Origin: Armatimonadota bacterium
Lineage (GTDB): Bacteria > Armatimonadota > Fimbriimonadia > Fimbriimonadales > GBS-DC
DNA length: 64,000 bases
Direction of reading: 5' to 3'
Assembly (NCBI GenBank): GCA_013359125.1
Contig: JABWCR010000004.1
Span: 84,607-148,606, forward strand
Shown here: one piece after another, positions 43,471 through 59,693 of the stretch
Position numbering within the stretch: position 1 is the stretch's first letter
Layout of the letters: every line of letters begins with the position of its first letter
The notes under the pieces: generated by a model
Database searches by the model: none
Told to the model about the DNA's origin: nothing
Seen by the model: the letters and a program-made list of their open reading frames with translations, nothing else
Position numbers and translations under genes: made by a program

Positions 43471-44571
43471 ATGAGCAGAAAATTTGGAGTGGTAATGAAG
43501 CTGATGGTGGCGGGGGCTTTGGCCGTTGCCGCGCTGTCCTCGTTCGCGCAGGGCGATATCCGCTGTTGCACCTATAGCGTCAGGCACAACTTTAGGATCT
43601 GTCTGCCGCAGTGCCCAGTCGTCGGGGTGGAGTGGAACTGGCACGCGCAGGCATCGGCCTGGAATCCGTTAACGACCAATATCAACAGCGGCACAGCCAT
43701 ATATCCCGTGCCCAGCATGGACACGAAGTGCGCTACCGCGTTCACAGCGCAGGATTGTTCGTTCGCAACCGCCTGCGCGGCTTTCCAAGTTGATCCGATC
43801 CCCGGCACCCCCTGCATTAAGGGCTACCATCAGGCTTATGGTCGCGCTTGTGTCCGTTGCCGTCAGTTTGGCGCGGCTGCCAATTCGGCGTCGCACATCA
43901 AGATCCTTTGCGGCGCTCCCAATGCGACCGGAGCGATCTCGTGGCAGCCTGTGCTTGAAGATCGCGTGGGCGGCGGATGCGAGGTTGTGAATCACGACCC
44001 GATTTACATGAAGTACGAAGGCATCGATGGATATTTGGAAGACCGGCTTTTCGATTTGCGCGCAAGCGGGTTTAGCTGGGAAACCCAGGATTTGGACGGA
44101 GACGGTTGGGGCGATGTGGCCAATCTCGTCCCGACGCGAGGCTCTGGGATCATTAACGTCTTTGTGGGCGGCCAGACGATGACAGGGCACCACGGCCAAC
44201 TGCAGTTGGCTTATGAAGACGGCATGGTTACTAGCCTTGTGAAGACCGGGCTGTTCGAACCGTTGCCGATTCCTGGCGTAGGCCATCCCATTCCCGACGC
44301 GATCGAGGTACCGGCTTCGTTCGAGCTGCCGTTCGAGACTCCGCGAGGCATGCGCCTTCAGAGTATCGAGATCGGAGGGGACGGCAGAGGCGGCTGGTCC
44401 CCAGTAACGGGCGACGTCAATGGCGACGGCTGCGTGGACGACATCGACCTGGCGCGAGTTCTCCGGATGTTCGGTCAGAGCGGCGAACTGGCAGAAGACG
44501 TGAACGACGACGGCACAGTCGATGACGCGGACCTGGCCATCGTTCTCGAGAACTTTGGCATGGGTTGCTAA
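43471..44571 (+). CDS. secreted Cys-rich protein with a C-terminal GC-terminated dockerin-like module
   Basis: The ATG at 43471 follows GGAGG. Signal peptide ...ALAVAALSSFAQG. About 15 Cys in the first 160 aa. The C-terminus is GDVNGDGCVDDIDLARVLRMFGQSGELAEDVNDDGTVDDADLAIVLENFGMGC-stop. Confidence 0.7.
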   Translation: MSRKFGVVMKLMVAGALAVAALSSFAQGDIRCCTYSVRHNFRICLPQCPVVGVEWNWHAQASAWNPLTTNINSGTAIYPVPSMDTKCATAFTAQDCSFATACAAFQVDPIPGTPCIKGYHQAYGRACVRCRQFGAAANSASHIKILCGAPNATGAISWQPVLEDRVGGGCEVVNHDPIYMKYEGIDGYLEDRLFDLRASGFSWETQDLDGDGWGDVANLVPTRGSGIINVFVGGQTMTGHHGQLQLAYEDGMVTSLVKTGLFEPLPIPGVGHPIPDAIEVPASFELPFETPRGMRLQSIEIGGDGRGGWSPVTGDVNGDGCVDDIDLARVLRMFGQSGELAEDVNDDGTVDDADLAIVLENFGMGC

Positions 44572-44580
44572 TTAGGTAGC

Positions 44581-44624
44581 AAAAGCGCCCCGACCGAATG
44601 ACCGGTCGGGGCGCTTTTTTTTTT
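44581..44624. terminator. strong bidirectional rho-independent terminator between convergent genes
   Basis: GCGCCCCGACCG (44585-44596) pairs with CGGTCGGGGCGC (44603-44614). AAAA lies upstream and T10 downstream. Confidence 0.85.
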
Positions 44625-44636
44625 GCAATCGCTGAT

Positions 44637-45572
44637 CTACTTTCGTCGCTTGCGGAGCAAGGCAAGACCGCCCAACGCAAGCACAGCCATCGAAGAAGGC
44701 TCTGGCACGACGGTTACGTTGTCGATAAGCCCAAAGAGCAAGTGCCGAGCGTTCGGATCGGTCGACGAAGTGGCATTGATGTCGAACTGGCCGAAGAAGA
44801 TGTTGTCGCCGCCAAAGGAAGGATTGGTTACGGTGGCGATCAGTAGTCCGTCTATCTGCCAGGTAACCGTGTTTCCCAGCTTCTCGATTCTCCATCGGTG
44901 CCAGGCCATGCCGAACGTCCCGACCGCGGTGTTACCGGTCTGCTGTGGAAAGAGCGTCAGTTGGGCAGCTGGGGCAGGCACATTCCCAAATCCAGCGTAA
45001 TAAGCATGAGTGTTGTTAACCGCGGCCGCGGTGTTGCCGGCTGCATAGACGCCAGTAGCCGGAGCGATCGGGGCGCCCGGGCCATTGTAGGCTCTCACAT
45101 CGGTGGCCGAACCGCCATCGCCTGTGCCGCCAAATCCGAGGCCTGTATAGGTCGAACCAGGAAACTGCACCTGGTTGGTCGGAGCGCCAATTCCGGCCTG
45201 CGTAACCTGAGTGGAACCGCTGCCGCCGCCGGGGAACGGGCCGTTAAAGTTCTGCCAGCAATCAAAGGTCAGGACGTAATCGCCGGTGAAGCTTTCGCCG
45301 AGCGGCGATACGCTCATGCCGCTGAAGAGGCCGGTGCCTGGCGTGTTGGCCTCCATCTTCAAACCGCGAGTGCCCGTTCCGCTCGGCGCCTGCGGAATGC
45401 CAACGGTCGAGTAATCGAAGAAGAAGTTGGCAAAGCTGCCGGTGTGCGATTGGTTGAACTGCCAATTGGCCGTCGTGTCGGTCTCAAAGTCGTTGGAGTA
45501 AAGCTGAGCGGATGCGCTCGTGATCAGCAAGACGGTTGCCGCGCCTGCCGCCAAAATGTGAGCGGTTTTCAT
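44637..45572 (-). CDS. secreted PEP-CTERM-anchored protein (ConA/LamG-like beta-sandwich guess)
   Basis: Signal peptide MKTAHILAAGAATVLLITSASAQ. The C-terminus is VVPEPSSMAVLALGGLALLRKRRK. Confidence 0.8.
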   Translation of the reverse strand: MKTAHILAAGAATVLLITSASAQLYSNDFETDTTANWQFNQSHTGSFANFFFDYSTVGIPQAPSGTGTRGLKMEANTPGTGLFSGMSVSPLGESFTGDYVLTFDCWQNFNGPFPGGGSGSTQVTQAGIGAPTNQVQFPGSTYTGLGFGGTGDGGSATDVRAYNGPGAPIAPATGVYAAGNTAAAVNNTHAYYAGFGNVPAPAAQLTLFPQQTGNTAVGTFGMAWHRWRIEKLGNTVTWQIDGLLIATVTNPSFGGDNIFFGQFDINATSSTDPNARHLLFGLIDNVTVVPEPSSMAVLALGGLALLRKRRK

Positions 45573-45778
45573 TGGATCTCCTTTCGTCGTAAGATTTGAT
45601 TCAAATCTCGAAGCGTGTTCCTAAATCATACATTACCATCGAATGCTTCCGGCCTGGCAATATTGCTTGATTCGATACCGACCAAATGCTGGCCAACTTT
45701 AACGCTCAGCGTCGAAGCGGGCCCATAGGGCCAAAAAATGTGTTAAACTGTTGCATATCTGTGGGAGGAGGTATCTCG

Positions 45779-47212
45779 ATGTTTACAAGAGTGTCGGTGG
45801 TGGCGATCGTCGGTCTAGTCATCAGCCTTGCAAGCGCGCAGAACAGCACGTTCAACTTTCAGGCTAATCTACAGAAGTTTGGGCTCCCTGCTAATGGATC
45901 GTTCGAGATGGCGTTCCATGTCTACAGCGTTGCCACAGGCGGTGTCGCGCTACAGAGCTTTCCAACGACGGGGACCCTCTCGATCAATGTTACCAACGGA
46001 CGGCTGGATGTGGAGCTTACCTACTCGACGGCCGTATTTAGCGGCCCAGATCGATTCTTAGAGATCGTAGTCGACGGAACGGTATTGTCGCCGCGAGTGA
46101 AGCTTAATCCAACGCCTTACTCGATCTTCAGTCAGAACACGAGGGGCGTTGTTGTCGATGCCAGCAATCGCGTGGGCATAGGCCAAACGGCGCCCGCCAA
46201 TCGATTGCATTTGGGCGGTGGCAGCGATGCGTCTCTTACAGGCGGCGGATTCTTACAGATCGGCAACACGGGACTCACTAACGTCGTCTTCGACGATAAC
46301 GAGATCATGGGGCGCAACAACGGCGCGGCCGGATTTCTGCATCTCAACAACGACGGCGGCACCTTGGTCTTGACAGGCGGAAGCGCAGGCTTTGTAGGCG
46401 TCGGTACGCCGAACCCTCAAGCCAAGTTGCACGTAAAAAGCAATGCGGACGTCTTGAACTTGGAAGGCAGCGACCATTGTTACATCCAGTTCTATCCCGA
46501 TAGCTTTGGCGCAGGTCGAAAGGGGTGGCTCGGATATCCGACCGCCACGAGCAATGTACTAACCTTGGCAAACGAAATCGGTGGTACGAGCGTAGCCCTT
46601 GCGTCGAACGGCGGCGTCGGCATCTTTACCAGCACGCCGAACCGGCGGCTGACCGTATGGGACACCTTGAGCGTCGAGGCAAGCCCAGGGTTCATTCCGT
46701 TCGTAGGCGTCGTCCGACCGGGAAACGTGGCCTACGAAGCCTTCATGTACGTCGATACCAATGGCGAGGGCGTCGTCGCTGCCGATCGCAAGAGCTTCCG
46801 AGAGATCAATCCAGACGATCCTGAAACCGACATCTGGTACGTCTCGATAGAAGGCCCCGAAGCCGCTATGTATGTGCGTGGGACGGCCTGTTTGGTGAAC
46901 GGTCGCGCGGTCATCGACTTGCCGCAACACTTTCGATCGTTAGCGTCCGAAAATGGGATGACCGTGCAATTGACTCCGCTCTCGATGGACTCTAAAGGCT
47001 TGGCCGTCGTTCAAAAGAGCCTCAATGGAGTTGTCGTAGGCGAACTCGGCAACGGTCAAGGCAACTATGACTTTGACTGGGAAGTAAAGGCCGTGCGCCG
47101 GAAGCACGAGAACTACGAACCAGTCAAACGATGGGACGAGTATATGCCTGCCGACGCTAAGCGCGAAATCGAGTGGGAGGAGAGACTAAGGAAAGTCAAG
47201 AATAGGCAATAA
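45779..47212 (+). CDS. secreted tail-fibre-like repeat protein (paralog 1)
   Basis: The ATG at 45779 follows GGGAGGAGG. Signal peptide present. Recurrent (V)GIG(T)xxPxxxLxV motifs (VGIGQTAPANRLHLGG, VGVGTPNPQAKLHVKS, VGIFTSTPNRRLTVWD). The conserved C-terminal block is TDIWYVSIEGPEAAMYVRG...LPQHF. Confidence 0.6.
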   Translation: MFTRVSVVAIVGLVISLASAQNSTFNFQANLQKFGLPANGSFEMAFHVYSVATGGVALQSFPTTGTLSINVTNGRLDVELTYSTAVFSGPDRFLEIVVDGTVLSPRVKLNPTPYSIFSQNTRGVVVDASNRVGIGQTAPANRLHLGGGSDASLTGGGFLQIGNTGLTNVVFDDNEIMGRNNGAAGFLHLNNDGGTLVLTGGSAGFVGVGTPNPQAKLHVKSNADVLNLEGSDHCYIQFYPDSFGAGRKGWLGYPTATSNVLTLANEIGGTSVALASNGGVGIFTSTPNRRLTVWDTLSVEASPGFIPFVGVVRPGNVAYEAFMYVDTNGEGVVAADRKSFREINPDDPETDIWYVSIEGPEAAMYVRGTACLVNGRAVIDLPQHFRSLASENGMTVQLTPLSMDSKGLAVVQKSLNGVVVGELGNGQGNYDFDWEVKAVRRKHENYEPVKRWDEYMPADAKREIEWEERLRKVKNRQ

Positions 47213-47287
47213 GAGACAAGGGCTCTGTGGCTAAAAGCAGGCTATACTCTGGATAGCTCTTAAGGGCTATACAGGAGGTTTATCGCT

Positions 47288-48826
47288 ATGCGTTGCACGC
47301 TCGTTGCGCTGTTCGCGGTTATCGTCGTTTGCGCTGCTTTCTCCCAACCCTTCACTTATCAAGGCTCGTTGCGCGATGCTGGATTGCCAGCTTCAGGCGA
47401 GTACTCGATGACCTTTCGGCTCTTTGGCTCGCTAGCCGGGGCAGACCAGATCGGCGGCAATATTGTTCAGAACGTCTCGATCGCCGCAGGATTGTTTACA
47501 GCCGTACTCGACTTTGGCACGACAGCATTCAATGGGTCCGACCGGTGGCTAGAAGTTCAAGTGGGCGCTCAAGTCCTGTCGCCGCGCATTAAACTGAACG
47601 CTGTGCCCTATGCAGCGTATGCGCACAAACCGTGGGTGAAATCGGGTACTGCGGTTCATTATTCGGATGGGAACGTCGGGATTGGCACGTCTACGCCCGG
47701 TTTTCCGTTGACCTTTGCCAATCAACTGGGCGCCAAAATCTCGCTCTACGGCCAAAGCGGAAATAGTTACGGCTTTGGCGTTCAAAGCGCTCTTCTCCAG
47801 ATTCACACGAACGTGCAGGCAGCCGACATTGCGTTCGGGTACGGGTCGAGCGAAGCCTTTACTGAGAGAATGCGCGTGAAAGGCAATGGCAACGTAGGCA
47901 TTGGCACATCTACGCCGGTTTACAAGTTTGATGTTCTGGGCGGTGGCGGGGTTGCACGATTCAGCGACGGTACGAGGGATCTCGTTTCTTGGCTAGGCAG
48001 TTCTGAAGGCGCAGACGGAGCGTTCTTTGGAACGACTACCGCGCACTCTTTAATTCTTCAGAGCTCCAATACTGCCAGAGTAACGGTACTGCCGAATGGC
48101 GACGTTGGAATCGGCACAACGACCCCGATGGCCAAACTCGACTTGAGAGGTCCCGCCATTATCCAAGAGAGAATCGATGTGGTTGACGAGACTCTCTCTA
48201 CTAAAGTCATTTTGGGCGCGCCAGGCGGCGTCGGCAGGATCAATACTTATAACGCAAATGGAATTCACATGAACTACATTAGCACGAACGGCGCTACCAA
48301 CTTCCCCTTGATGGGCGTTTTGAACTCAGCTCAGACTGTCGTTGCGGGTGGAATATTGCGAGACAATGTGAGCGGCACCGTCGTGTTTGCGAACGTCAAA
48401 AACTTTGTCGAGCCCAATCAGAACGACCCGACAACCGACATTTGGTATGCGAGTCTGGAAGGTCCCGAAGCGGCCATGTACGTCCGTGGCAAGGGCCGGC
48501 TGGTCAATGGCGAGACAACGATTGTTCTTCCTGACCACTTTCTATCTATGATGTCGTCCGATACCTCGACCGTCCACTTGACGCCTCACTCGAGGAGTTC
48601 CAAGGGCCTTGGCTGTGAAATTGGTCCCAACGGCATCACGGTATTCGAACTGGCCGGCGGCAAAGGTGCATACGAGTTCTCGTGGACGGTAACTTCCGTT
48701 CGCAAGGGATTTGAGAACTATCGCGTCCTTCGACCATGGGACGAGATCGCGCCCGTAGAGACCGATCGCGAAAAGGCCTGGCAGGCTCGGCTGAAGGAGT
48801 TGGAGGAGAAAACAGACCGTAACTAA
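47288..48826 (+). CDS. secreted tail-fibre-like repeat protein (paralog 2)
   Basis: Same architecture as paralog 1. Signal peptide present. Repeats VGIGTSTPGFPLTF, VGIGTSTPVYKFDVLG, VGIGTTTPMAKLDLRG. C-terminal block TDIWYASLEGPEAAMYVRG...LPDHF. Confidence 0.6.
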   Translation: MRCTLVALFAVIVVCAAFSQPFTYQGSLRDAGLPASGEYSMTFRLFGSLAGADQIGGNIVQNVSIAAGLFTAVLDFGTTAFNGSDRWLEVQVGAQVLSPRIKLNAVPYAAYAHKPWVKSGTAVHYSDGNVGIGTSTPGFPLTFANQLGAKISLYGQSGNSYGFGVQSALLQIHTNVQAADIAFGYGSSEAFTERMRVKGNGNVGIGTSTPVYKFDVLGGGGVARFSDGTRDLVSWLGSSEGADGAFFGTTTAHSLILQSSNTARVTVLPNGDVGIGTTTPMAKLDLRGPAIIQERIDVVDETLSTKVILGAPGGVGRINTYNANGIHMNYISTNGATNFPLMGVLNSAQTVVAGGILRDNVSGTVVFANVKNFVEPNQNDPTTDIWYASLEGPEAAMYVRGKGRLVNGETTIVLPDHFLSMMSSDTSTVHLTPHSRSSKGLGCEIGPNGITVFELAGGKGAYEFSWTVTSVRKGFENYRVLRPWDEIAPVETDREKAWQARLKELEEKTDRN

Positions 48827-48852
48827 GGCTCAACTTCGGCGTCCATTATCAC

Positions 48853-49728
48853 ATGAGGCAGACTTGGGTCGCAATCGCGATTGCATTGTCGTCATGCGCC
48901 TTCGCGGATGGTTTGACTTGGCATGAAGGCATGCCCAAGGCGATACAGATCGCGAAGGCCGAAAACAAACCGATCTTGGCTTTAGACCTCTTCGGCCGTT
49001 GGGACGATGAGTTCTGCTGAACGAACGCGCGCACACTGAGAGCCGTGCTGTTCTCAAACCCAGAAGTTCAAGAGTTTCTCGAAAAAAACTTCGTGCTGAC
49101 ATGGAACGAGGTTCGCCCAGTGCCCAAGGTCGAGATCGATTTTGGAGACGGCAAGAAGCTAACGCGCACCTTGATGGGCAACACCGTGATCTATGTCTGC
49201 CGTCCGGACGGTACGGTGGTCGACGCATTGCCCGGCATCTACACCCCGCATGATTTTCTCAAAGAGATCAAGGTTTCTTTAGCTGCGCTTGCCGTCAGCG
49301 ATGAGAATCTGGCCGACCACCACAAAGGGCTTGTGGAAGCGGATGTAACCAAGGAGAGAGCGCGGGTTTCCATGTCAAAGGCGCGCGTGGAGAGTCCGCT
49401 TTTGGCCGCGCTCGGCGTTCCACAGTACGAAAGTCCGGATGGCGAATCTAAGCCAATGGCGCTGGATGTCAGCAAGATTCCTAAGAGCCGGGCAGAGATG
49501 GAAGCGATGGGAAGCGCCGAGCAGGTCGTCGCCAAGGATTCCTCCAACAACGTGCGCTACGTAAGGCCGATCGTGCACTTCATCTTAAGCCGGCAAAATG
49601 CGGCGCAGAAGCCAGAGCAGCTGCGCGAGACGATCTTTGCTCAGGCGCTCGGCTTCGACATCAAAGACCCCTACCTAGGGCTAGCGTCCTTGCTGTTGCC
49701 CGGCACGCCTGGCGGTCGAACGAACTAA
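48853..49728 (+). CDS. thioredoxin-fold lipoprotein-like gene interrupted by an in-frame TGA (49018-49020): selenocysteine candidate or pseudogene
   Basis: The ATG at 48853 gives MRQTWVAIAIALSSCAFADGLTWHEGMPKAIQIAKAENKPILALDLFGRWDDEFC-TGA-TNARTLRAVLFSNPEVQEFLEKNFVLTWNEV... The same frame continues into track ORF 49045..49728. An LSSC lipobox-like signal is present. The TGA sits where Thioredoxin_7-type proteins carry their redox Cys. Confidence 0.5.
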
Positions 49729-49756
49729 CAGCCCAAGCCAAAGTTCTCAAGCACGA
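49711..49756. repeat. 46-bp exact repeat, copy 1 (the 3' end of a GC-dockerin gene plus 14 nt of flank)
   Basis: GGCGGTCGAACGAACTAACAGCCCAAGCCAAAGTTCTCAAGCACGA is identical to 51841-51886. Confidence 0.9.
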
Positions 49757-50555
49757 TGGCCAGATCTTGGTCGTCTACGATGCCGTCTTCGTTGACATCG
49801 GCAAAGGGATTGACGCCTCCGAACGCTTCTAAGACCAGCGCTAAGTCCTGGTCGTCCACGCAGCCATCGCTGTTCGTATCGCCGTCTGGCACGATTGGGA
49901 AGAAGTGGAAGCTGTCGTACCCAATGTTGCAGTCGGGGAAAACGTTATTGCCATCGCTCTCCGTAATCTCGATGCGCTTGATATTCTCCGTTGCCGACAC
50001 GATGCCCCAGAAGTCGGCGGCTCCGGGAGCGCCGCCTCCGCCCCCAGCGTTGTGCACGGGTATAGCGCCGTTGAACAATTGTGAGCCGGTGGACGAGACA
50101 ACTCGGATCGTGGATCCGCTCACGCCATCGGCGGATTGCGAAAGATGGTCGAATCCAAACGCTCGCACTGGGTTTCGGAACTCGATAGTCATGCTGTCGT
50201 GCTCGATCGGCGGATTCGAGCCCGGCCCAAGCTCCAGACCTCCTGGCGAAACGACCATCTCGCCAGAAGTCGGGAACAGCCTATTCGTGCTCGCGTCCCG
50301 AACGCCAGAAAAGCCGCCGGGCGTAAAGGTGTCGTTGCCTCGAACGACGTGCAAGAGCGCCGCCACCGCGATGAATCGCACCCCTTTGTACGACAAGCCT
50401 GACAAGTCTACGCCATGCAGGGTCTCAAAGTCGATGGTCATAGGCGGATTGCCCGCCGCAGCCATGAAGCCCGCTTTGTTCTGCGGAAACGTCTGAATTT
50501 GCGCCAATGCGCTCAAGGCAAATGTCGCTATTGCTAAAGTCGCGGAAATCTTCAC
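49725..50555 (-). CDS. secreted protein with a C-terminal GC-terminated dockerin-like module
   Basis: GTG start after GGAGGAA. Signal peptide MKISATLAIATFALSALAQ. The C-terminus is DGDTNSDGCVDDQDLALVLEAFGGVNPFADVNEDGIVDDQDLAIVLENFGLGC-stop. Confidence 0.7.
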   Translation of the reverse strand: MKISATLAIATFALSALAQIQTFPQNKAGFMAAAGNPPMTIDFETLHGVDLSGLSYKGVRFIAVAALLHVVRGNDTFTPGGFSGVRDASTNRLFPTSGEMVVSPGGLELGPGSNPPIEHDSMTIEFRNPVRAFGFDHLSQSADGVSGSTIRVVSSTGSQLFNGAIPVHNAGGGGGAPGAADFWGIVSATENIKRIEITESDGNNVFPDCNIGYDSFHFFPIVPDGDTNSDGCVDDQDLALVLEAFGGVNPFADVNEDGIVDDQDLAIVLENFGLGC

Positions 50556-50739
50556 CGGTTCCTCCTGAATGGGCGAAGCATAAACCCATTGTCTATTTTG
50601 CTACATCCACGCGCCGCCTACATTCACTATATTGTACAGTCGGTTTTGCCGAAGTTCGCGACCGCCGCATCTGAACTGAGATACAATTAGACGAATAGAG
50701 CCGAGATAAGTCTTTGAGACGGCATCTGGAGGCCAGACA

Positions 50740-51822: not shown

Positions 51823-51840
51823 GCGGATACAGGATAGGCG

Positions 51841-51886
51841 GGCGGTCGAACGAACTAACAGCCCAAGCCAAAGTTCTCAAGCACGA
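51841..51886. repeat. 46-bp exact repeat, copy 2
   Basis: Identical to 49711-49756. It covers the last 10 codons plus the stop of gene 51855..55883 and 14 nt of its 3' flank. Confidence 0.9.
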
Positions 51887-54800
51887 GCGCAAGATCGGTG
51901 TCGTCCACTGCGCCGTCGTTGTTCAGGTCTTCTGGCAGTCCCGAACCGGTCTGACCAAATGCGGTCAGCACCAATGCGAGATCAACGTCGTCCACGCATC
52001 CGTCCAAGTTCACATCGCCGGGGATCCGAATGATCACGGGCGTGCAACGGCTGAACTCCGATGTCTCGAAGAACAGGAAGTTGACCGGGAGAAAATGGCG
52101 TCGACTCGCGGTCGTCGTTATGAGCGAGCCAACCGGCGCCAAGCCCGGATCGACATCCACACTGAAGCTGAGGATGCCGTTCGCGTCGGTCAGATCTTCT
52201 AAAATTGCCAGAGGCTGTCGTCCTTCGCCGTGGTTGCCGGGGTCGCACTGCACGTTCGAATAAAAGTAGATCGCATACCCTGTTTCAGGCAGCGCAGTCA
52301 ACCTGCCGGAAATGACTGTATCCGTGCCTGTGAAAATCGCGGAAAGAACGACAGGGAAGTTGACGATGTTGTCTTCCGGCGGATCGTCGTTGGGCGTAAC
52401 GCCATCGTCGCCAACGTCGATGCCGAGGTCGTCGTTGTTGTAAATGCGATTGCCAATGATGCCGTTGATGCGATTGTTCAGCGGTCTGGTTACGCCGTTG
52501 CGGTTGTTGAAAGCAATGCGGTTCCAGTGCGTCGAAAATACGCCGCCGACTGTGTTGTACTCGCTTATGCCACGGAATCGAACGCCGTTGAGGCCGTTTC
52601 CCAGGTCCATCGTGCCCGTGATGTCGGTGCCAATGCTGTTCAGAACCACGGCATTGCCTCCAGAGTTCTGGATTCCTTCAATGTCGCCCGTAATCTCAAT
52701 ACCGTCGAGCGTGTTTCCACTAATCACGTTGCCGCCATCAAACTGCGCGACCCCGACCGAATTGCCAGAGGAGTTGTCGATGCGAACGCCGACAAGATTA
52801 GGCATTGCGGCATTGCCAGAAATGTTGACGCCAATGTGATTGTTTCGAACCACATGGCCGCCGCCGCCCGTGATCAATACCCCGATGCCCGAATGGTTAG
52901 AGACGATATTGCGTCCCGTAACGCCTGCTCCTCCAATTTCAGACGCTCGGCTATCCTTGAGAAAGATGCCGTTCGTGGCGTTTGGAGCCGGGTCGCCGGC
53001 CTTGTTCAAGCCGATGTAATTGCCCATGATCTTGTTGCGAAGCGCCTGCGCGCCTTCGATCAGTACGCCTGACCGACCATTATTGGCAATGATGTTGCGC
53101 TCGCCGGTCTGTCCGGGCGAAACCAGACTGTCCGGCGCGTTAATGATGGCAATACCGTCAAATCCGTTGGGCCGGGAATCGACGCCGTTCGCGCCCGTCC
53201 CAACGACGTTGCCCGCAACTTGGTTGAATCCGGCGCCGTTGCCTGTAATCAAGACGCCGTACTGCTGATTGCCCGAGACGACATTGCCAGGCGGCGTTCC
53301 CGGATCGTTCGTCGATGCGCCAATAAAGTTATTAGGCGCGCCTGTAATGACTACCCCGCTCAAGTTGGCCAAGCGCGTCTGCCCATCGATCGCCACGCCG
53401 ATATAGTTGCCCAATATCTGGTTTCCCGTCGCCTGAGCGCCGTTGATCGCAACGCCATGTCCAAAATTATTGCTAAGGATGTTTCTGGCATCTGCGCCGT
53501 TACCGCCGATGATGTTGTTGGGCGCATTGGTGATCTGGATCGCATTCCCCGTATTGGGCGCGCCGTTGATTCCATCGGCCACCACTCCGATGCGATTGCC
53601 CTCAACCCGATTGCCCGAGGCGCGATTGCCCGTAATCTCAACCCCATGCGCATTCATTCCGATCACATTCATTGCGCCTTCGACCGTGCCGCCCACAATG
53701 TTGTTTGCAGCATGCTCCAAGCGAACTCCGTTTCCGATATTACGGCCCAAGAACGATCCATCCGCGTTGGTGCCGATATGGTTGCCCTGAATCTGGTTGC
53801 CCGTCGCCGGTCCAAAGCCTTGGATGAAGACGCCGTGCACGCCGTTGCCGACGACCAAATTTCGAGCAGCTGGGACTGTGCCTCCTAGGGTGTTGTTCAA
53901 GGCATCGGCCATAAACACGCCGGAGAACCCGGCGCCCATCCGCTGCGATTCGTCTCGATTGCTGCCCAATAAGTTGCCCTGCACAAGGTTGCTGGCGCCG
54001 TTCAAGATTCGCACGCTGTTGAACTCGCTGCCCGCAACAACGTTTCGAGCCCCTTCGGCCAGCCCGCCAACCGTGTTGTTTCTTGCCGTCGCCCCGACGA
54101 TAACGACCCCGATGGTGTTGCCCAGATCATCGGCGTTGCCAGGGACGCCGTCTGGGTTCGATACCATGCCCGTAGCATCCAAACCCAGATAGTTGCCTTG
54201 CACTCGGTTATTCTCGACCGTTCTGAAGCCGCCGTCCAGCATGACTCCCGCGTTGCCGTTGTCGGCGATCACGTTGCGAGCGGCTCCGGCCAATCCGCCG
54301 ATAACATTGTTCGAACCCAGCACAACGATGCCGCCCAAGCCTTCAGTCGCACGGCCATTGCCCTTAGCGCCCGAACCGAATCGGTCTATGCCAACGTAGT
54401 TGCCCTCCACAAAAGAGTGCGAGCCGCTCAGAGTAAGCCCGGTGCGGTTGAAATTGGTTATGATCAGGCCGCGGACAACGCTGTCGGAAGGTACCGTGAG
54501 GCCGTTCCCCAAGCCCGATACAAAGTGTCCATCGATCTCGATAATGGGCGTGTTCTCGCCGCCAGGTTGAGTCGAACCGTCTATGAAAACCGGCCTAACA
54601 ATATCCGGCAAGTTGGTAAACGGTTCGTACGTAAGGCCGCCCGTTACGGCAAAGTTAATCGCGTGCGAACCGGCTAGCGCATTGATCTGCATGATGGCCG
54701 CCCGGAGTGTGCAGACGCCGGTGAATCCTGACGTGGCATTGCCCGTATCGCAAATGCCGTCGGTTATATCGCCGTCCGGCAAGTCCAGCAGAAGGTTGAC

Positions 54801-55883
54801 CGTAAACGTCGCCATCGTTCGCATACCCATCGATAGGGCCGCCACGCCAGTAGATGTCAACCCTGCGATATCGGTGAACGCGGTCGGATTCAGGCGCATC
54901 GGCAAGGCCGCGCGCAGGCCAAGCTCAAAAAGAACGTCCTCAATGACGACCTTCCCATCGTCTGCGCGAGCGACGACGATCTCTCCTGTCTCAAAATTGC
55001 AAACTACAAGGTCGTCATACTCGTTCGCGGTGATCCGTGCGCGAAAAGCGATCGACCGGTCGCCAGAGAAGGGAACTCGGCCTTTAGCGGCGATCGATCC
55101 GTCGGGCTCGACTACCCGAACATCGCCTGTAACCGAAACGGTCGCGATTTGATAATCTCCGCCGTTGGCAAAGCGCCCTGGAGCCATCGCTGTCAGCGGC
55201 ATGTTTAGGACAAGTTTGCTTTGGGCAGGCAATACGCCCGACTTTCCTCCGTGCGAAAGCATCCGATCCCGGCCAAAGACGACGAACAGCCCCTCATCGG
55301 TCGCGCAGGCGATATCGATCCAGGGTTTGTCGTCAAACTGAGCAGGCGCGATTGCGTTAATTCTTCCCGGAGCTCGGACTCTCTCTGCAATCGCTCTCAT
55401 CGCGCCTTCGGGCCCTTCATAGACATAAAGTTCAAAGGACTGGCCTAAGTCGATTCCGATCAGCAGGTCAGCCAAACTGTCGCGGCGGTTCGCATCGCCG
55501 GAGGCTAAAGCCGTGATCGTGCCCGACAACAGACTCCTCTGTGAGATCGCGAAGGCTCCTCCACCATTGCCGGACAACCACAACAACTCCGATCCCTTTC
55601 CGCAGACAATGTCCGTCCTTCCGTCGGCGTCAAAGTCGCCCGATGCAACGAGCTCCGGCGCAAACGGCAGGGCAGTGTCGACCGTGTGCGGCAAGAACGG
55701 ATCGCTGCCGCCGCCTAAGTGCGGGAAGATCGCGCCCGGGTTCCCCAATTGAACGCGAACGGATGCGCCATGAACGAAAGCAACGTCTTGAATCCCGTCG
55801 CCGTTGAAGTCAGCCGAGGCCATTTGTTGGCTATAGGCGGGCAGAAAGTAGAGAGAGAGTAGTATGCATATCGAGAGTTTCAT
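51855..55883 (-). CDS. giant secreted FG-GAP/VCBS + parallel beta-helix repeat protein with a C-terminal GC-terminated dockerin-like module
   Basis: 1342 aa. Signal peptide present. N-terminal FG-GAP-like units (DFNGDGIQDVAF, GDFDADGRTDIV). More than 20 PbH1-type coils (GARNxIxxNxxxGVxIxG...GNxIxGNxIG). The C-terminus is GDVNLDGCVDDVDLALVLTAFGQTGSGLPEDLNNDGAVDDTDLALVLENFGLGC-stop. Confidence 0.8.
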   Translation of the reverse strand: MKLSICILLSLYFLPAYSQQMASADFNGDGIQDVAFVHGASVRVQLGNPGAIFPHLGGGSDPFLPHTVDTALPFAPELVASGDFDADGRTDIVCGKGSELLWLSGNGGGAFAISQRSLLSGTITALASGDANRRDSLADLLIGIDLGQSFELYVYEGPEGAMRAIAERVRAPGRINAIAPAQFDDKPWIDIACATDEGLFVVFGRDRMLSHGGKSGVLPAQSKLVLNMPLTAMAPGRFANGGDYQIATVSVTGDVRVVEPDGSIAAKGRVPFSGDRSIAFRARITANEYDDLVVCNFETGEIVVARADDGKVVIEDVLFELGLRAALPMRLNPTAFTDIAGLTSTGVAALSMGMRTMATFTVNLLLDLPDGDITDGICDTGNATSGFTGVCTLRAAIMQINALAGSHAINFAVTGGLTYEPFTNLPDIVRPVFIDGSTQPGGENTPIIEIDGHFVSGLGNGLTVPSDSVVRGLIITNFNRTGLTLSGSHSFVEGNYVGIDRFGSGAKGNGRATEGLGGIVVLGSNNVIGGLAGAARNVIADNGNAGVMLDGGFRTVENNRVQGNYLGLDATGMVSNPDGVPGNADDLGNTIGVVIVGATARNNTVGGLAEGARNVVAGSEFNSVRILNGASNLVQGNLLGSNRDESQRMGAGFSGVFMADALNNTLGGTVPAARNLVVGNGVHGVFIQGFGPATGNQIQGNHIGTNADGSFLGRNIGNGVRLEHAANNIVGGTVEGAMNVIGMNAHGVEITGNRASGNRVEGNRIGVVADGINGAPNTGNAIQITNAPNNIIGGNGADARNILSNNFGHGVAINGAQATGNQILGNYIGVAIDGQTRLANLSGVVITGAPNNFIGASTNDPGTPPGNVVSGNQQYGVLITGNGAGFNQVAGNVVGTGANGVDSRPNGFDGIAIINAPDSLVSPGQTGERNIIANNGRSGVLIEGAQALRNKIMGNYIGLNKAGDPAPNATNGIFLKDSRASEIGGAGVTGRNIVSNHSGIGVLITGGGGHVVRNNHIGVNISGNAAMPNLVGVRIDNSSGNSVGVAQFDGGNVISGNTLDGIEITGDIEGIQNSGGNAVVLNSIGTDITGTMDLGNGLNGVRFRGISEYNTVGGVFSTHWNRIAFNNRNGVTRPLNNRINGIIGNRIYNNDDLGIDVGDDGVTPNDDPPEDNIVNFPVVLSAIFTGTDTVISGRLTALPETGYAIYFYSNVQCDPGNHGEGRQPLAILEDLTDANGILSFSVDVDPGLAPVGSLITTTASRRHFLPVNFLFFETSEFSRCTPVIIRIPGDVNLDGCVDDVDLALVLTAFGQTGSGLPEDLNNDGAVDDTDLALVLENFGLGC

Positions 55884-55935
55884 GTCGAGCCCTCCCGGTT
55901 CGTTTCATAGATTGTACAACAGATTTAAGCCGATT

Positions 55936-55969
55936 GAAGAAACCCCTCGCCCGATGCAAGAGCGAGGGG
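55936..55969 (-). terminator. rho-independent terminator of PEP-CTERM gene 55979..56833
   Basis: On the minus strand: CCCCTCGC, an 11-nt loop, GCGAGGGG, then TTTCTTC. Confidence 0.7.
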
Positions 55970-55978
55970 ATGGCGAGT

Positions 55979-56833
55979 TTACTGCTTGCGCCGTCGCGAG
56001 CGCACCGCCAATGCGATCAAACCGCCGCCCAAGACGGCCATCGAGGCGGGCTCGGGCACGGGTTCGCCATAAATAAAGTCGTCCATGACGACGACATCGT
56101 GTCCGTTCAGCGGATCGTCGTTAGGGCCGCTGTTCAAACCCATTGCAGCGTTTCCGCTGAAGATTCGAACGCGGGAGACGATCCGATCGGCGAACTTGAC
56201 TCCGGCAAAGGAGAAACTTTCGTGAGGATTAACGCCCGCAGGAACGAAGATGGAGTAGATCAGACTGTTGTTGGCGTCGTAATACTCCATCTTTGTGCTG
56301 TCGGGCAGGTCGATGTCGGTAAACACGGCGCCAAACCCCGTAACCGTCGCCGGGAAGTTGGTACCGGCTACGAAGAAGCGCACGTCGGTAATGACGCTGT
56401 CGAGCGCGGTGAACAGCCTTTGCTGGCTGAACACGGCGAACTCGTTCGGATAAGAAGCGTTGATCCGAGCGTACTCGACCGGGGTATTGGTCGGGTTGCT
56501 GTCGTCCGCGCTCAAGAGAAACCCAGAGCCAGGCGTTGTGAACTCGGCGCCGCGGGCGCGGGGCGCGACCGGCGCGTTGAGAAAGTTGCCGGGGAAGAGG
56601 TTAGGATCCGAGAAGGCATCGCCCACCGCGTCCCAGTTGATTTCTCTTCTACCGTTTGGATTGCCCACGCCAGGCGTGTTGGCGTTGAGCGGTCCCAGCA
56701 GGGTTCTGTACTGATTGACGACGCTGAGCACCGCGGCGTGATCGCCAGAGCCGGCCAAGACGGTTTGGCCGTGGACCGGCAGCGCGACCGCCACCATGGC
56801 CGCTACCGTCAAAAAGATGTACTTGTTCGGCAT
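55979..56833 (-). CDS. secreted PEP-CTERM-anchored protein
   Basis: GGGAGG RBS. Signal peptide ...AVALPVHGQ. The C-terminus is VPEPASMAVLGGGLIALAVRSRRRKQ. Confidence 0.8.
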   Translation of the reverse strand: MPNKYIFLTVAAMVAVALPVHGQTVLAGSGDHAAVLSVVNQYRTLLGPLNANTPGVGNPNGRREINWDAVGDAFSDPNLFPGNFLNAPVAPRARGAEFTTPGSGFLLSADDSNPTNTPVEYARINASYPNEFAVFSQQRLFTALDSVITDVRFFVAGTNFPATVTGFGAVFTDIDLPDSTKMEYYDANNSLIYSIFVPAGVNPHESFSFAGVKFADRIVSRVRIFSGNAAMGLNSGPNDDPLNGHDVVVMDDFIYGEPVPEPASMAVLGGGLIALAVRSRRRKQ

Positions 56834-56951
56834 TTTGACCTCCCATTTCGACTGAATGTATGTTCAGTTTATCGATGGGAGGCCTCTTGCCGCATACGCC
56901 GTTTGGCCTATTTTGAGGCTGAAATTGTGCTACAAATTCTCAAAAAGCCGT

Positions 56952-58085
56952 TCAGCACCCCATGCCAAAGCCTTCTAAGACCATAGCCAGGTCGGAGTCG
57001 TCCACCACGCCGTCGCGGTTGAGGTCGGCATTGCGGCGGCCGGTTTGGCCAAACTCTTCCAGGACGATTGCCAGATCGATATCGTCCACACAGCCGTCAA
57101 AGTTAACGTCTGAATCGGGCACAGGGGTCAGCAGATAGCCGATGCCGTTGCCGTTCGCCACGATCTGGTTGTCGTTGTTGATGTCCCTGGCTTCTTGAAA
57201 CACGCCCAAAAAGTCGGCCGTTACTAAGTCGTTCAGGTCCTGCATCACCCCTGAATAGAGGAAGGCCCGATCGACACCGCCGCTTCGATAGAAGCCGACG
57301 ATCCATTCTGCATCGTTGATAGAATAGGCTTGAGAGACCGTTCCGCTCAAGGCGCCCAGGTCCTCGGACAGACCAAACCGCCATCGGCAGGCGCGGTTTT
57401 GGTTCAGGTGGTTGTTCGCATAGCCTACGATAACGCCCTCGTTGTTGATGGAATAGGCGCGGCCTATGCTGCCGCCGAGCAATGGCAACTCGTTTGCGAT
57501 TCCGAACTCGTACACGAAAGGCTTTTGTTCGTTCGATGCATTGGTAGAGTATCCTACCACTCGGCCCGAGTCGTTTATCCCATACGCCCAGCCCAAGTTT
57601 CCGCCTAGCGACGGTATTGCGGTCATTGAGGAGCCGTCATATCTATAGGCGCGATACTGGCTGTTGGACAACTGGGCCGCTCCGGCGATGAGCCCCGATG
57701 CGTTGATCGCCCACCCGTAGCTGCGCTGACCGCCAAGAGTCGGGATTGGAGCCATGTTGCCGTTTTCATACCGGAATCCTGTCGGAAGGCCGGATGCATT
57801 GTTCGAGTAGCCGACGATAACGCCCAGCGAGTTGATGTCGTAAGCCTCGCTGCGGTTGCCGCCCAAGAAGCCAAGCCCGGTCATCGTGCCGTTTTGCCAC
57901 ACAAAGGCCTCGATCGCCGACCCGCCGATGTTAGACCGTCCGACGACGATGCCGCTATCGTTCAACGCGTACGCCTCGGTCGTGCCCGTGCCGAGATTGC
58001 CGAGATTAGTTACTGCAAAGCGCTGCGCGAACGCCGTACCGACAAGCAGGGCCGCGCACGAAACGAGAATCGATTTGTTTAGCAT
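56952..58085 (-). CDS. secreted HAF-type repeat protein with a C-terminal GC-terminated dockerin-like module
   Basis: The ATG at 58085 follows GGAGG; the track's upstream extension is rejected. Signal peptide MLNKSILVSCAALLVGTAFAQ. About 7 repeats of AYxINxxGxIVGYS. The C-terminus is SDVNFDGCVDDIDLAIVLEEFGQTGRRNADLNRDGVVDDSDLAMVLEGFGMGC-stop. Confidence 0.75.
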   Translation of the reverse strand: MLNKSILVSCAALLVGTAFAQRFAVTNLGNLGTGTTEAYALNDSGIVVGRSNIGGSAIEAFVWQNGTMTGLGFLGGNRSEAYDINSLGVIVGYSNNASGLPTGFRYENGNMAPIPTLGGQRSYGWAINASGLIAGAAQLSNSQYRAYRYDGSSMTAIPSLGGNLGWAYGINDSGRVVGYSTNASNEQKPFVYEFGIANELPLLGGSIGRAYSINNEGVIVGYANNHLNQNRACRWRFGLSEDLGALSGTVSQAYSINDAEWIVGFYRSGGVDRAFLYSGVMQDLNDLVTADFLGVFQEARDINNDNQIVANGNGIGYLLTPVPDSDVNFDGCVDDIDLAIVLEEFGQTGRRNADLNRDGVVDDSDLAMVLEGFGMGC

Positions 58086-58105
58086 GGCTAAATAATACCT
58101 CCAGG

Positions 58106-58918
58106 TCAAGGAAAGAGTATTGGATTCAGTGGACTGGCAGCCGGTTCGCCCGGTTGCTGTCCCGGATGAAACGCTTGCAGATCGGCTTGGCGATGCGGGC
58201 TGTCCGGTTCCATAATCCGGGTGCCGTCGGGGTAGTAGATGACGGTCATGGCCTCTCGCATGTAACTGCTGCGATTGGGACCGGCCATGTGCAGCGTCAG
58301 GCCGGAGTGAAAGGTCGCATCGCCCGGTTGAAGCTCGTATTGCGTTGTCGGCCAGCCGCGCTCGGCCACCATCTTTTCGAATTCGACATGGTTTTCGTCG
58401 GAGATCGCTCGGTGGCCCAGGAAACCTTCTTTGTGAGAGCCATCGGCAAAACTCATGGCGCCCATTTCGGCCGTTACGGGACAGAGCGCCATCCACATCG
58501 TGATCGTGTTGTCGGTGTCCAGCGGCCAATAGTGCTGGTCTTGGTGCCACGGGGTGTTTTTACCGCCCGGTTCCTTGAACAGCGCCTGGTCGTGGTAAAG
58601 GCGAACGGACGGCGCGCCCATGAGCTGGGCCGCGATGGAGGCAAACCGTTTTGCGAATACGAACTCCCTGCATGGTGCGTTCAATTGCCAGAGGTTTGTG
58701 ATTTGCACGAACCGGCGCTGCTCGCCGCCAATGCCGGGTTGAATGTGGCGCTCTTCGGCTGCAATAGCGAGGGTGTTCGCAATGGCGTCGCGATAAGGCT
58801 GCAGCGCGTCGGGGTTAAGCAGCCCTCGAATCACCGCTCGACCGGTATCCCGATACTCTTCGACAACTTCGGAAGCGACCAGGAAAGGTTCGTTCAGGTT
58901 CACACGATAGATGTTCAC
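58106..58918 (-). CDS. phytanoyl-CoA dioxygenase (PhyH) family Fe(II)/2-oxoglutarate oxygenase
   Basis: ...YHDQALFKEPGGKNTPWHQDQHYWPLD... is the HxD motif. ...FHSGLTLHMAGPN supplies the distal His. The stop lies 20 nt before the HAF/GC-dockerin gene start. Confidence 0.75.
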   Translation of the reverse strand: MNIYRVNLNEPFLVASEVVEEYRDTGRAVIRGLLNPDALQPYRDAIANTLAIAAEERHIQPGIGGEQRRFVQITNLWQLNAPCREFVFAKRFASIAAQLMGAPSVRLYHDQALFKEPGGKNTPWHQDQHYWPLDTDNTITMWMALCPVTAEMGAMSFADGSHKEGFLGHRAISDENHVEFEKMVAERGWPTTQYELQPGDATFHSGLTLHMAGPNRSSYMREAMTVIYYPDGTRIMEPDSPHRQADLQAFHPGQQPGEPAASPLNPILFP

Positions 58919-58943
58919 CTGAAAGCGATAAGAATCCTGCTAA

Positions 58944-58982
58944 GAAAAAAAGGCCGGCAGCCAATAAAGCAGACTGCCAGCC
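58944..58982 (-). terminator. rho-independent terminator of the CHRD/PEP-CTERM gene
   Basis: On the minus strand: GGCTGGCAG, a 13-nt loop, CTGCCGGCC (one mismatch), then TTTTTTT. Confidence 0.65.
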
Positions 58983-59006
58983 TTTGACCTTGACTGTTCT
59001 AAGGAC

Positions 59007-59570
59007 TTAGTTTCGGCGTCGTCGGAGCGCCAAGGCGCCCAGTCCGCCAACCAGAGCGATCATCGATGCCGGCTCTGGCACCATGCACCACTGGCCGCGA
59101 ATCTCTCCGCCAGGGAACACGTTGGTGTGAACGTTGAAGTACAGATTACCAGCCATCAACGCAGCCTCGCTAGCGATCGGATTGGTCATGCTAGCGCCCG
59201 ACACTGTGTAGTGAATGACGCCGGGCGGGCTCTCCGTCCAGGTACCGGGGGCGCCCGTGTCGAACACGATTGGGCCGTTGGAACCTGCGGGCGCAACATG
59301 GTGATGCGCGCCTCGAAGGAAGTTCATGTTCAGCTGGCCGCCGGGCAACTGAATGCCCCAAACGTCAACGATCAAGGTGAACGTCTGATTGGAGTCATCA
59401 TAGAACATTGTGGCGGCGCCGAACGCATTGGTATTGCGCGGCGGCACTTCCTGGAAGCCTGTTAGAGCAGCCTGAAAGTGATGGATCATGGCCTCAGCCT
59501 TGGGCGCGCCCATAGTGAGCGAACCGGCGACCAAAGCCGCTGCAACAAGCAGCTTACAATTGAACCGCAT
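59007..59570 (-). CDS. secreted CHRD-domain protein with a PEP-CTERM anchor
   Basis: The ATG at 59570 lies 6 nt after AAGGAGG. Signal peptide present. CHRD-like blocks: LTGFQEVPPRNTNAFGAATMFYD..., GAHHHVAPAGSNGPIVFD, LYFNVHTNVFPGGEIRGQ. The C-terminus is VPEPASMIALVGGLGALALRRRRN. Confidence 0.8.
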   Translation of the reverse strand: MRFNCKLLVAAALVAGSLTMGAPKAEAMIHHFQAALTGFQEVPPRNTNAFGAATMFYDDSNQTFTLIVDVWGIQLPGGQLNMNFLRGAHHHVAPAGSNGPIVFDTGAPGTWTESPPGVIHYTVSGASMTNPIASEAALMAGNLYFNVHTNVFPGGEIRGQWCMVPEPASMIALVGGLGALALRRRRN

Positions 59571-59693
59571 ACTCATCCTCCTTTGCTTAAGATGGAGTCT
59601 TTCGACAAGGATTCTTCGCCCTCGCCGCTGAAGCAAGTTTACCCAAACGAAAGGCGATCCTTGCCTTCATTCCCTAAACATTCGCTTTCGCGG

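Follow-up and report, generated by a model that had tools for sequence, protein, structure and literature searches.

The window analyzed here, a 64-kb stretch of a genome from the order Fimbriimonadales (phylum Armatimonadota), contains at positions 43471 to 59573 an island of 12 genes, numbered g1 to g12, that encode predominantly exported proteins and carry two kinds of C-terminal tails, a dockerin module ending in Gly-Cys (GC-type dockerin) and the PEP-CTERM tail. We interpret this island, with a probability of roughly 0.6, as a nonoperonic run of surface-protein genes in which PEP-CTERM tails and putatively clasped dockerin tails are exchanged, and which turns over slowly and is not mobile. 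The dockerin is found far beyond the island. The genome as a whole (an assembly of 2.82 Mb, rated 100% complete; G000 in our numbering, with C-numbers for its contigs) shows a large, cohesin-less, noncellulosomal dockerin expansion on top of an older PEP-CTERM/exosortase system, as judged from the counts of dockerin tails, the single exosortase throughout, and the lack of Pfam cohesins and of glycoside hydrolase cargo.

The GC-type dockerin is found at the C termini of five island proteins. It follows a signal peptide and a Cys-rich orphan passenger in g1 (43471 to 44571, plus strand), a signal peptide and an orphan passenger in g6 (49725 to 50555, minus strand), a signal peptide and WD40 propeller repeats in the 360-residue g7 (50740 to 51822, plus strand), FG-GAP repeats and a long repeat region in the 1342-residue g8 (51855 to 55883, minus strand), and a signal peptide and HAF repeats in g10 (56952 to 58085, minus strand). 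All five tails end in FGxGC directly before the stop codon, and the NCBIfam model NF041540 (“GC-type dockerin domain-anchored protein”) aligns to each of them up to its last position, in agreement with an earlier preliminary description of this DNA, which had listed five such genes. The island tails share with this family a C-terminal dockerin ending in Gly-Cys but score below its curated cutoff of 29 bits (17.6, 26.3, 21.2, 17.2, and 23.9 bits), as do most tails in the genome, only about 9 of which reach that cutoff in a six-frame search. With the Pfam Dockerin_1 model (PF00404; gathering threshold, 22.9 bits), four of the five tails are above the cutoff: those of g1 (31.2 bits), g8 (23.6 bits), g10 (29.0 bits), and g7, whose dockerin passed in the NCBIfam/hidden Markov model (HMM) search and was outside the best 25 Pfam matches. 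The g6 tail, at 20.1 bits, is slightly under the threshold.

The tag is already known to the NCBI curators; no publication on it was found in the literature searched, which contained nothing on “GC-type dockerin,” nothing relevant on dockerins of Armatimonadota, and no paper combining “dockerin” and “PEP-CTERM.” Public records of orthologs come from Fimbriimonadales, Armatimonadota, or “bacterium HR15” and are named either hypothetical or “dockerin type I domain-containing protein.” The version found in this lineage is divergent, massively expanded, cohesin-less, and apparently cysteine clasped.

An alignment of 36 tails shows that the module of ~55 residues consists of two repeats with the consensus DVNxDGCVDDxDLAxVLxxFG, which holds for all five island tails. 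Each repeat comprises ~22 residues and contains a calcium-binding loop (D1, N/D3, D/N5, D9, and D12) followed by a helix, the layout that marks a dockerin. A profile of these tails matches the solved dockerins 2jnk/2ozn, 2y3n, and 1daq. The AlphaFold2 model of the tail has a predicted local distance difference test score (pLDDT) of 91.7, and the first 33 matches of this model in a Foldseek search are all dockerins, the best one being 2y3n_B (template modeling [TM] score, 0.80; root mean square deviation, 1.0 Å). These comparisons show that the module, as modeled, has the dockerin fold with two calcium-loop/helix repeats.

The two cysteines of the GC-type module covary. A terminal Cys is present in all 68 tails that have a Cys at position 7 of loop 1 and is missing in 26 of the 37 tails that do not (Fisher P = 3e-16, counted over paralogs with shared ancestry uncorrected). 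The 11 exceptions, which have the terminal Cys without the one in loop 1, mostly contain a Cys 1 to 5 residues upstream of the first loop. A second class of ~30 tails in the same genome lacks both cysteines and ends in FGxxGE/D. In the tail model, DSSP assigns isolated bridges at residues 17, 33, 45, and 61, which we read, by internal symmetry, as 17-61 and 33-45; this pairing would put the final Gly-Cys against Cys17. Dockerins are known to have an intramolecular clasp in which residues preceding or at the first calcium loop contact the C terminus, stabilizing the module and aiding cohesin binding (Slutzki et al. 2013, PMC3821032). The clasps described there are all noncovalent, formed by aromatic stacking, hydrophobic contacts, or salt bridges, with no mention of a cysteine or a disulfide (PMC3821032). 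Taken together, the covariation, the predicted bridges, and the known clasp suggest that the GC type is a disulfide-clasped dockerin, with the last Cys bonded to the Cys of loop 1. It would share with the described clasps (PMC3821032) the contact between the loop 1 region and the C terminus and differ from them in being a disulfide. Such a clasp could offer a simple means of stabilizing engineered dockerins.

Dockerins are textbook parts of the cellulosomes of Gram-positive bacteria. In this genome, a search with an HMM built from the five island tails yields 122 open frames that end in a dockerin (122 to 133, depending on the search), which is roughly 4 to 5% of the genes, or about 1 in 20. 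The tail ends exactly in GC in 62 of the 122 and has a Cys within its last four residues in 91. The 30 other genomes of the order used for comparison include 18 members of the same family, 3 of a second dockerin-rich family, and 9 of three dockerin-poor families. Dockerin-tail matches number 132 in this genome, 35 to 114 in the 18 other genomes of the family, 55 to 61 in the second family, and 0 to 5 in the three further families. Exactly one exosortase is found in 30 of the 31 genomes, independent of the dockerin count. In the present genome it is encoded at C8:122149-123075 (PF09721, 141.7 bits at C8:122389-123075), so that the preliminary statement that no exosortase is visible does not extend to the rest of the genome. 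The companion statement on cohesin does: at the sequence level, the Pfam cohesin domain (PF00963) has no match at an E value of ≤1 in this genome and none above the cutoff in the 30 relatives.

The passengers of 15 dockerin proteins, 5 from the island and 10 chosen at random, include WD40, FG-GAP, and HAF repeats, a reprolysin-like protease, and an SBBP propeller but are mostly orphans; most have no Pfam family, and none of the 15 is a glycoside hydrolase. Both hallmarks of a cellulosome-type cohesin-dockerin system, a cohesin partner recognizable in sequence and carbohydrate-active cargo, were missing in these tests. The tail resembles the type I and type II dockerins of cellulosomes and of Clostridium perfringens glycosidases (PF00404; 2y3n, 2ozn, and 1daq) in its two tandem EF-hand-like calcium loops, each with a helix, in its modeled fold, and in its C-terminal position on varied secreted proteins. 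It differs from them in the conserved pair of cysteines (position 7 of loop 1 and the last residue), which is found in none of the matched solved dockerins, in the cohesin not found and the cargo other than carbohydrate-active enzymes, in its diderm armatimonadotal host, and in its ~120 copies in a 2.8-Mb genome. A double-membraned, noncellulolytic lineage with a dockerin on ~5% of its genes offers a testable system for two open questions: what “orphan” dockerins bind, and how exosortase sorting relates to other routes of surface display.

Several further observations concern the dockerin genes. A two-gene cassette occurs in five copies (C16:75382-79954, C17:36615-41048, C24:67259-68951, C33:80050-82958, and C22:6238-10841); its first protein, of ~1000 residues, ends in DLNKDGxVDxxDxExxLRxxGRRGD, and its second, of ~490 residues, ends in FGLGCE. 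Twelve contigs, which derive from at least 9 sequencing runs, encode the exact g6 protein. The short-read assemblies of this species (Logan contigs with g6, L031 to L039) repeatedly break off exactly where the 3′ ends encode a dockerin, which makes it likely that genes with such tails are underassembled in metagenomes. A metagenome scan with g6 as the query returned only dockerin tails.

The PEP-CTERM tail is found in three island proteins, as the preliminary description also had it. It follows a signal peptide and an orphan passenger in g2 (44637 to 45572, minus strand) and g9 (55979 to 56833, minus strand) and a signal peptide and a CHRD domain in g12 (59007 to 59573, minus strand). All three tails consist of a PEP motif, a hydrophobic helix, and a basic end and exceed the TIGR02595 cutoff of 16 (22.4, 20.0, and 26.1 bits, respectively). 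Genome-wide, a pattern search turned up 27 convincing proteins with this tail.

The two tails occur on related passengers. After removal of the tails, 13 pairs of a dockerin protein and a PEP-CTERM protein with homologous passengers are found genome-wide. The proteins of the tandem pair C44:96340-97371 and C44:97311-98372 share 77% identity across the 246 residues that end with “...GGGRYLxL”; beyond this point, one has the dockerin and the other has VPEP...RRRRK. The C20/C28 pair, with 56% identity, has an equally clean passenger-tail junction, and the counterpart of the HAF protein g10 with a PEP-CTERM tail is a paralog of 39% identity encoded at C4:75338-76411. These 13 pairs, in which a passenger carries either tail, are the basis for regarding the two tails as alternative anchors, as had been proposed from the island alone. 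The so-called “choice-of-anchor” logic is said to be Haft's. The present case resembles PEP-CTERM/exosortase systems with a choice of anchor in its three island PEP-CTERM proteins, its one genomic exosortase, and its passengers with differing C-terminal tags; it differs from them in that the other tag is a folded dockerin and not a transmembrane-type sorting signal. A separate observation is the frame C34:18338-20539 (plus strand), in which a passenger with a full PEP-CTERM tail is followed, without interruption, by another stretch that resembles a signal peptide and by a further passenger with a GC-type dockerin; either two surface-protein genes have fused here or a stop codon has been lost.

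We take the dockerin to be a folded module that binds a partner rather than a sorting signal of the sortase type. In a rival proposal, which we regard as quite unlikely, it is no anchor but a folded signal at the C terminus that directs export or sorting in some outer-membrane translocation step, like the C-terminal domain of the type IX secretion system (T9SS), and is possibly removed afterwards. The strictly C-terminal position in ~122 unrelated exported proteins, the interchangeability with PEP-CTERM (itself a genuine sorting signal), the cohesin not found, and the far higher conservation of tails than of passengers would all fit such a signal. It is the full dockerin fold with the full set of calcium ligands that argues for binding instead; to our knowledge, all characterized members of this fold are protein-binding modules. 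No translocon that could serve as a candidate was found or tested.

If the dockerin is a binding module, a receptor is to be expected, and its nature bears on whether the two tags work independently. No cohesin was recognized by sequence in g2, in g9, or in nine small PEP-CTERM proteins, nor in the candidate receptor family described here; a cohesin recognizable by fold alone may be compatible with this sequence-level negative. It is conceivable, if rather doubtful, that the two tags form one hierarchical display system in which the ~120 dockerin tails dock onto a lineage-specific, exosortase-anchored receptor that cohesin models fail to recognize. The candidate for such a receptor, found in a concatenated search with the nine small PEP-CTERM passengers, is a protein of 195 residues (C8:17805-18395) in which an orphan domain of ~140 residues lies between a signal peptide and a PEP-CTERM tail. 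Its paralog of ~330 residues, encoded immediately upstream (C8:18396-19385), combines a homologous domain with a dockerin tail. The domain is found in 16 of the 18 family genomes, 2 of the 3 genomes of the second dockerin-rich family, and none of the 9 genomes of the dockerin-poor families, a phyletic pattern that would fit any gene specific to the two families. Of the 16 loci retrieved, 15 have the two genes side by side in the same orientation; in the sixteenth (G014), a 2.7-kb contig shows the PEP-CTERM gene only. By sequence, the candidate matches nothing in Pfam or PDB. Its family is tiny, with 30 clusters in a set of 1.84 billion representatives and only two homologs in a word-indexed search.

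A local version of this idea, in which the interleaving is functional and g2, g9, and g12 are exosortase-anchored receptors for the neighboring dockerin proteins, is very unlikely. The genes g1/g2 and g8/g9/g10 are indeed adjacent, and 5 of the 27 PEP-CTERM genes in the genome adjoin a dockerin gene, compared to ~2.5 expected. However, g9 is deleted in the sister species with g8 and g10 intact, homologs of g2 and g12 occur in genomes without dockerins (G027 and G028), the orthologs are scattered in genome G005, g12 has a CHRD domain, and no cohesin signal was found at the sequence level in these proteins.

The island is the densest 16.1-kb window of the genome for tagged genes, with 8 of them versus 6 in the next best one, and the only window with at least two genes of each tag. 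In random placements, a maximum of at least 8 tagged genes is reached with P = 0.004; when the labels are shuffled at fixed positions, at least three genes of each tag fall into one window in 28% of the trials (P = 0.28). The density is therefore real, and the interleaving in itself is not significant. One could still view the island as no special locus at all, merely the largest chance cluster of ~150 tagged genes that are spread over 2.8 Mb, often in small groups, with no hot-spot property. This is an unlikely reading that nevertheless deserves serious attention: the density of tagged genes is high genome-wide, the mixture of tags is ordinary given the clustering, most of the island is collinear in the sister species, and the loss of synteny at family level affects the whole genome. 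It is disfavored by the rarity of such windows (0.4% of random placements), by the fact that the island, unlike the dense clusters on C24 and C28, is not a tandem array of paralogs, and by the two structural changes that separate its 16 kb from the sister species, where the flanks are collinear over ~4 kb upstream and ~3 kb downstream.

The dynamics of the locus were compared with one sister species, at ~90% DNA identity, whose contigs were found through a homolog of g5. The gene order there is the same, from the nitrite-oxidoreductase-type cluster through g1 to g8 and g10 to g12 to the beta-lactamase and amidase genes, with 10 of the 12 island genes collinear. The first change is the absence of g9: window positions 56894-56014 are replaced by 59 nucleotides (nt), and what is kept of g9 is its final 35 nt, the stop codon, and the terminator hairpin that follows the gene (55943 to 55969, minus strand). 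Because this 3′ remnant and the terminator persist, the loss of g9 occurred in the sister lineage. The second is the length of g7, 360 residues here versus 1194 in the sister species, an in-frame 2.5-kb difference within the WD40 repeats. An independent assembly (L031) likewise has the short form.

The proteins themselves diverge unevenly. Sequence identity to the sister species is 74% for g1, 85% for g10, and 91.5% for g8. In g1 and g10, signal peptides and tails are 92 to 100% identical and passenger cores 60 to 80% (in g1, 95 to 100% and 60 to 75%, respectively). Within the island, g6 and g8 share an identical stretch of 46 nt (49711 to 49756 and 51841 to 51886) made up of their 10 final codons, the stop codon, and 14 nt of 3′ flanking sequence; no other pair of dockerin tails in the genome remains identical beyond the stop codon. 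We read this shared 3′ end as a footprint of local exchange. The turnover at this locus proceeds by deletion, repeat change, and recombination, not by mobile elements.

Family-level relatives, at ~45% protein identity, add little to this picture. The island is not syntenic in them, with orthologs scattered or absent, but synteny is scrambled genome-wide at this level and the neighbors of every gene are dispersed, so the missing synteny says little about the locus itself; no synteny is conserved around the family ortholog of the beta-lactamase either, and the flanking beta-lactamase gene, used as a query in genomes of the species, retrieved only unrelated Clostridia. In a concatenated search with the island passengers, orthologs of g1 were found in nearly all family genomes, at 44 to 57% identity, and the fiber family of g3 and g4 in many copies. 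Homologs of g2, g6, g8, and g9 occur in 1 or 2 genomes each, on different contigs; those of g2 are found only in G005 (72%) and the dockerin-free G027 (48%). Neither g5 nor the NarJ-like gene next to the island was found in the 18 family relatives.

The island is mostly ordinary in composition: its GC content is 0.574 versus 0.586 for the genome, the GC content at third codon positions (GC3) is inside the genome range, and only the tetranucleotide distance is high, at the 98.6th percentile of 16-kb windows. This deviation may come from odd amino acid content or from something else. No integrase or transposase is found among the island genes, as the preliminary description had noted; all of these genes could be assigned, and no tRNA was found in the window; the features of a mobile genomic island are thus lacking apart from the tetranucleotide signal. 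Horizontal acquisition of the island together with the adjacent nitrite-oxidoreductase-type cluster would account for that signal and for the restriction of g5 and the NarJ-like gene noted above. We rejected it on composition and gene content and consider it extremely unlikely, given the ordinary GC and GC3 values, the lack of a tRNA, integrase, or transposase, the presence of g1 orthologs across the family, and tails that are typical of the lineage.

The proposal that the island is a hot spot with cassette turnover is partly supported. The dense clustering, the lack of family-level synteny, the loss of g9, the change in the length of g7, the fast-evolving passengers, and the g6/g8 exchange speak for it; the collinearity with the sister species, the scrambling of synteny everywhere, the absence of mobility genes, and the ordinary GC and GC3 speak against it. 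The turnover is real but slow and modest, with no sign of mobility. The island is of lesser weight than the expansion: it is a convenient locus that shows both tags, tail exchange, and gene loss together.

The interpretation that we favor, a nonoperonic and nonmobile run of surface-protein genes with exchangeable tails, can be put as follows. The 12 genes would be transcribed separately, most of them encoding exported envelope or surface proteins. After Sec export, the dockerin tail would fold around calcium and be locked by a disulfide between its last Cys and the Cys at position 7 of loop 1, or, in some paralogs, a Cys just before the loop, a covalent form of the known intramolecular clasp. 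The module might then hold its passenger noncovalently on a common envelope receptor that is not a recognizable cohesin. PEP-CTERM would be the older tag of the order, with recombination at the junction of passenger and tail swapping the two tails between homologous passengers; from this exchange it follows that the two tails probably act as alternative surface routes. The island itself may have arisen by local accumulation of tagged genes and would change slowly through deletion, contraction or expansion of repeats, fast divergence of passengers, and tail exchange, being neither a mobile element nor a functional operon. Four points weigh against this interpretation. The role of the dockerin as an anchor is deduced solely from its fold, from its exchange with PEP-CTERM, and from how strongly the tails are conserved; the covariation of the cysteines was counted over kindred paralogs, so that its P value overstates their independence; the comparison of turnover rests on one sister species; and the tetranucleotide distance of the island is unusually high.

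In addition to the tagged proteins, the island encodes a thioredoxin-fold protein, g5 (48853 to 49728, plus strand), that is probably an unannotated selenoprotein. The exported thioredoxin-like lipoprotein recognized earlier at this position depends on readthrough of an in-frame TGA (49018-49020); without it there is no such protein. The frame has a lipoprotein signal (LSSC), and the TGA, the only one in it, lies within DDEFC-U-TNARTLRAVLFS. It is kept in four sequences from three phyla (this genome, the sister species, and metagenome-assembled genomes of Eremiobacterota and Planctomycetes) within the motif C-U-TNARTL, and five homologs have a Cys in the same column. A hairpin with an 8-bp stem and the loop CGUGCU (49036 to 49057), resembling a selenocysteine insertion sequence (SECIS), starts 18 nt after the UGA and is conserved in a four-sequence alignment with one compensatory pair; the single-sequence fold of the region after the TGA is not significant alone (z = 0.74). 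The genome also has a tRNA-Sec and a SelB (360 bits versus a cutoff of 242). The conserved TGA, the Cys in the homologs, the hairpin, and this machinery together point to selenocysteine insertion. In the model of g5, the TGA-encoded residue is at the start of the first helix of the thioredoxin fold, and the fold matches include exported DsbD-like, AGR2/3, and DsbH-domain proteins. No NCBIfam model covers g5, which probably represents an apparently undescribed family with adjacent Cys and Sec. The case matters for annotation: the family occurs in three phyla and is miscalled as two short genes, public gene calls having split each of the other three TGA-containing homologs into pieces of 55 to 63 and 217 to 258 residues. 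A “tRNA-Pyl” reported by aragorn at C11:55405-55500 was rejected as an apparent false positive within sequence that resembles coding DNA.

Two further secreted proteins, g3 (45779 to 47212, plus strand) and g4 (47288 to 48826, plus strand), are 32% identical to each other and match phage tail-fiber families of the PHROG database, which bears out their earlier assignment as tail-fiber-like paralogs. In g4, the tail-fiber PHROG match (E = 4e-12) is accompanied by matches to PDB entry 8ond (E = 3e-6) and also to 8oml and 8ojn, the mosaic adhesive trimer fibers of Bdellovibrio (PMC10769870). The likeness to the Bdellovibrio fibers, which are chimeric and serve in prey recognition (PMC10769870), includes the repeated stalk motif GNVGIGTxxP and the organization as a multicopy family with a common N-terminal domain and variable ends. 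In the present case, this shared N-terminal domain comprises ~100 residues, the family is found throughout the bacterial family, and further copies in the genome include C7:35390-36937, C33:149456-150658, and others. The Bdellovibrio fibers differ in belonging to another phylum, and the NF053851 model scores only 15.9 bits here, versus its cutoff of 60. We know of no predatory lifestyle in this lineage.

The remaining island gene, g11 (58106 to 58918, minus strand), encodes a PhyH-family dioxygenase and has no signal peptide, so that the preliminary assignment of a PhyH oxygenase stands. By a hydrophobicity heuristic, signal-peptide-like N termini are found in the other 11 of the 12 genes, which agrees with the 11 secreted proteins originally counted, and the strand changes frequently along the island, again as described. 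The claim that strong terminators separate its units holds for two sites, the hairpin after g9 and a strong two-way hairpin between the convergent g1 and g2 (44581 to 44618; stem of 16 bp, 11 of them GC, between runs of A and T); overall, terminator-like sites in the island are not enriched (16 versus 20.1 in shuffled sequence).

Outside the island, two genes stand out in the comparison with the sister species. The NarJ-like chaperone gene (42621 to 43346, plus strand) is 76 to 80% identical to its counterpart, and the adjacent beta subunit is 98.6 to 99.8% identical; the whole nitrite-oxidoreductase-type cluster was not found in the 18 family relatives. On the other side, an orphan gene after the amidase gene (62130 to 63929, plus strand; 599 residues) is ~40% identical to its counterpart, with neighbors at 96 to 97%, and the genes that come next in the sister species encode the flagellar proteins FlgB, FlgC, FliE, and FliF.

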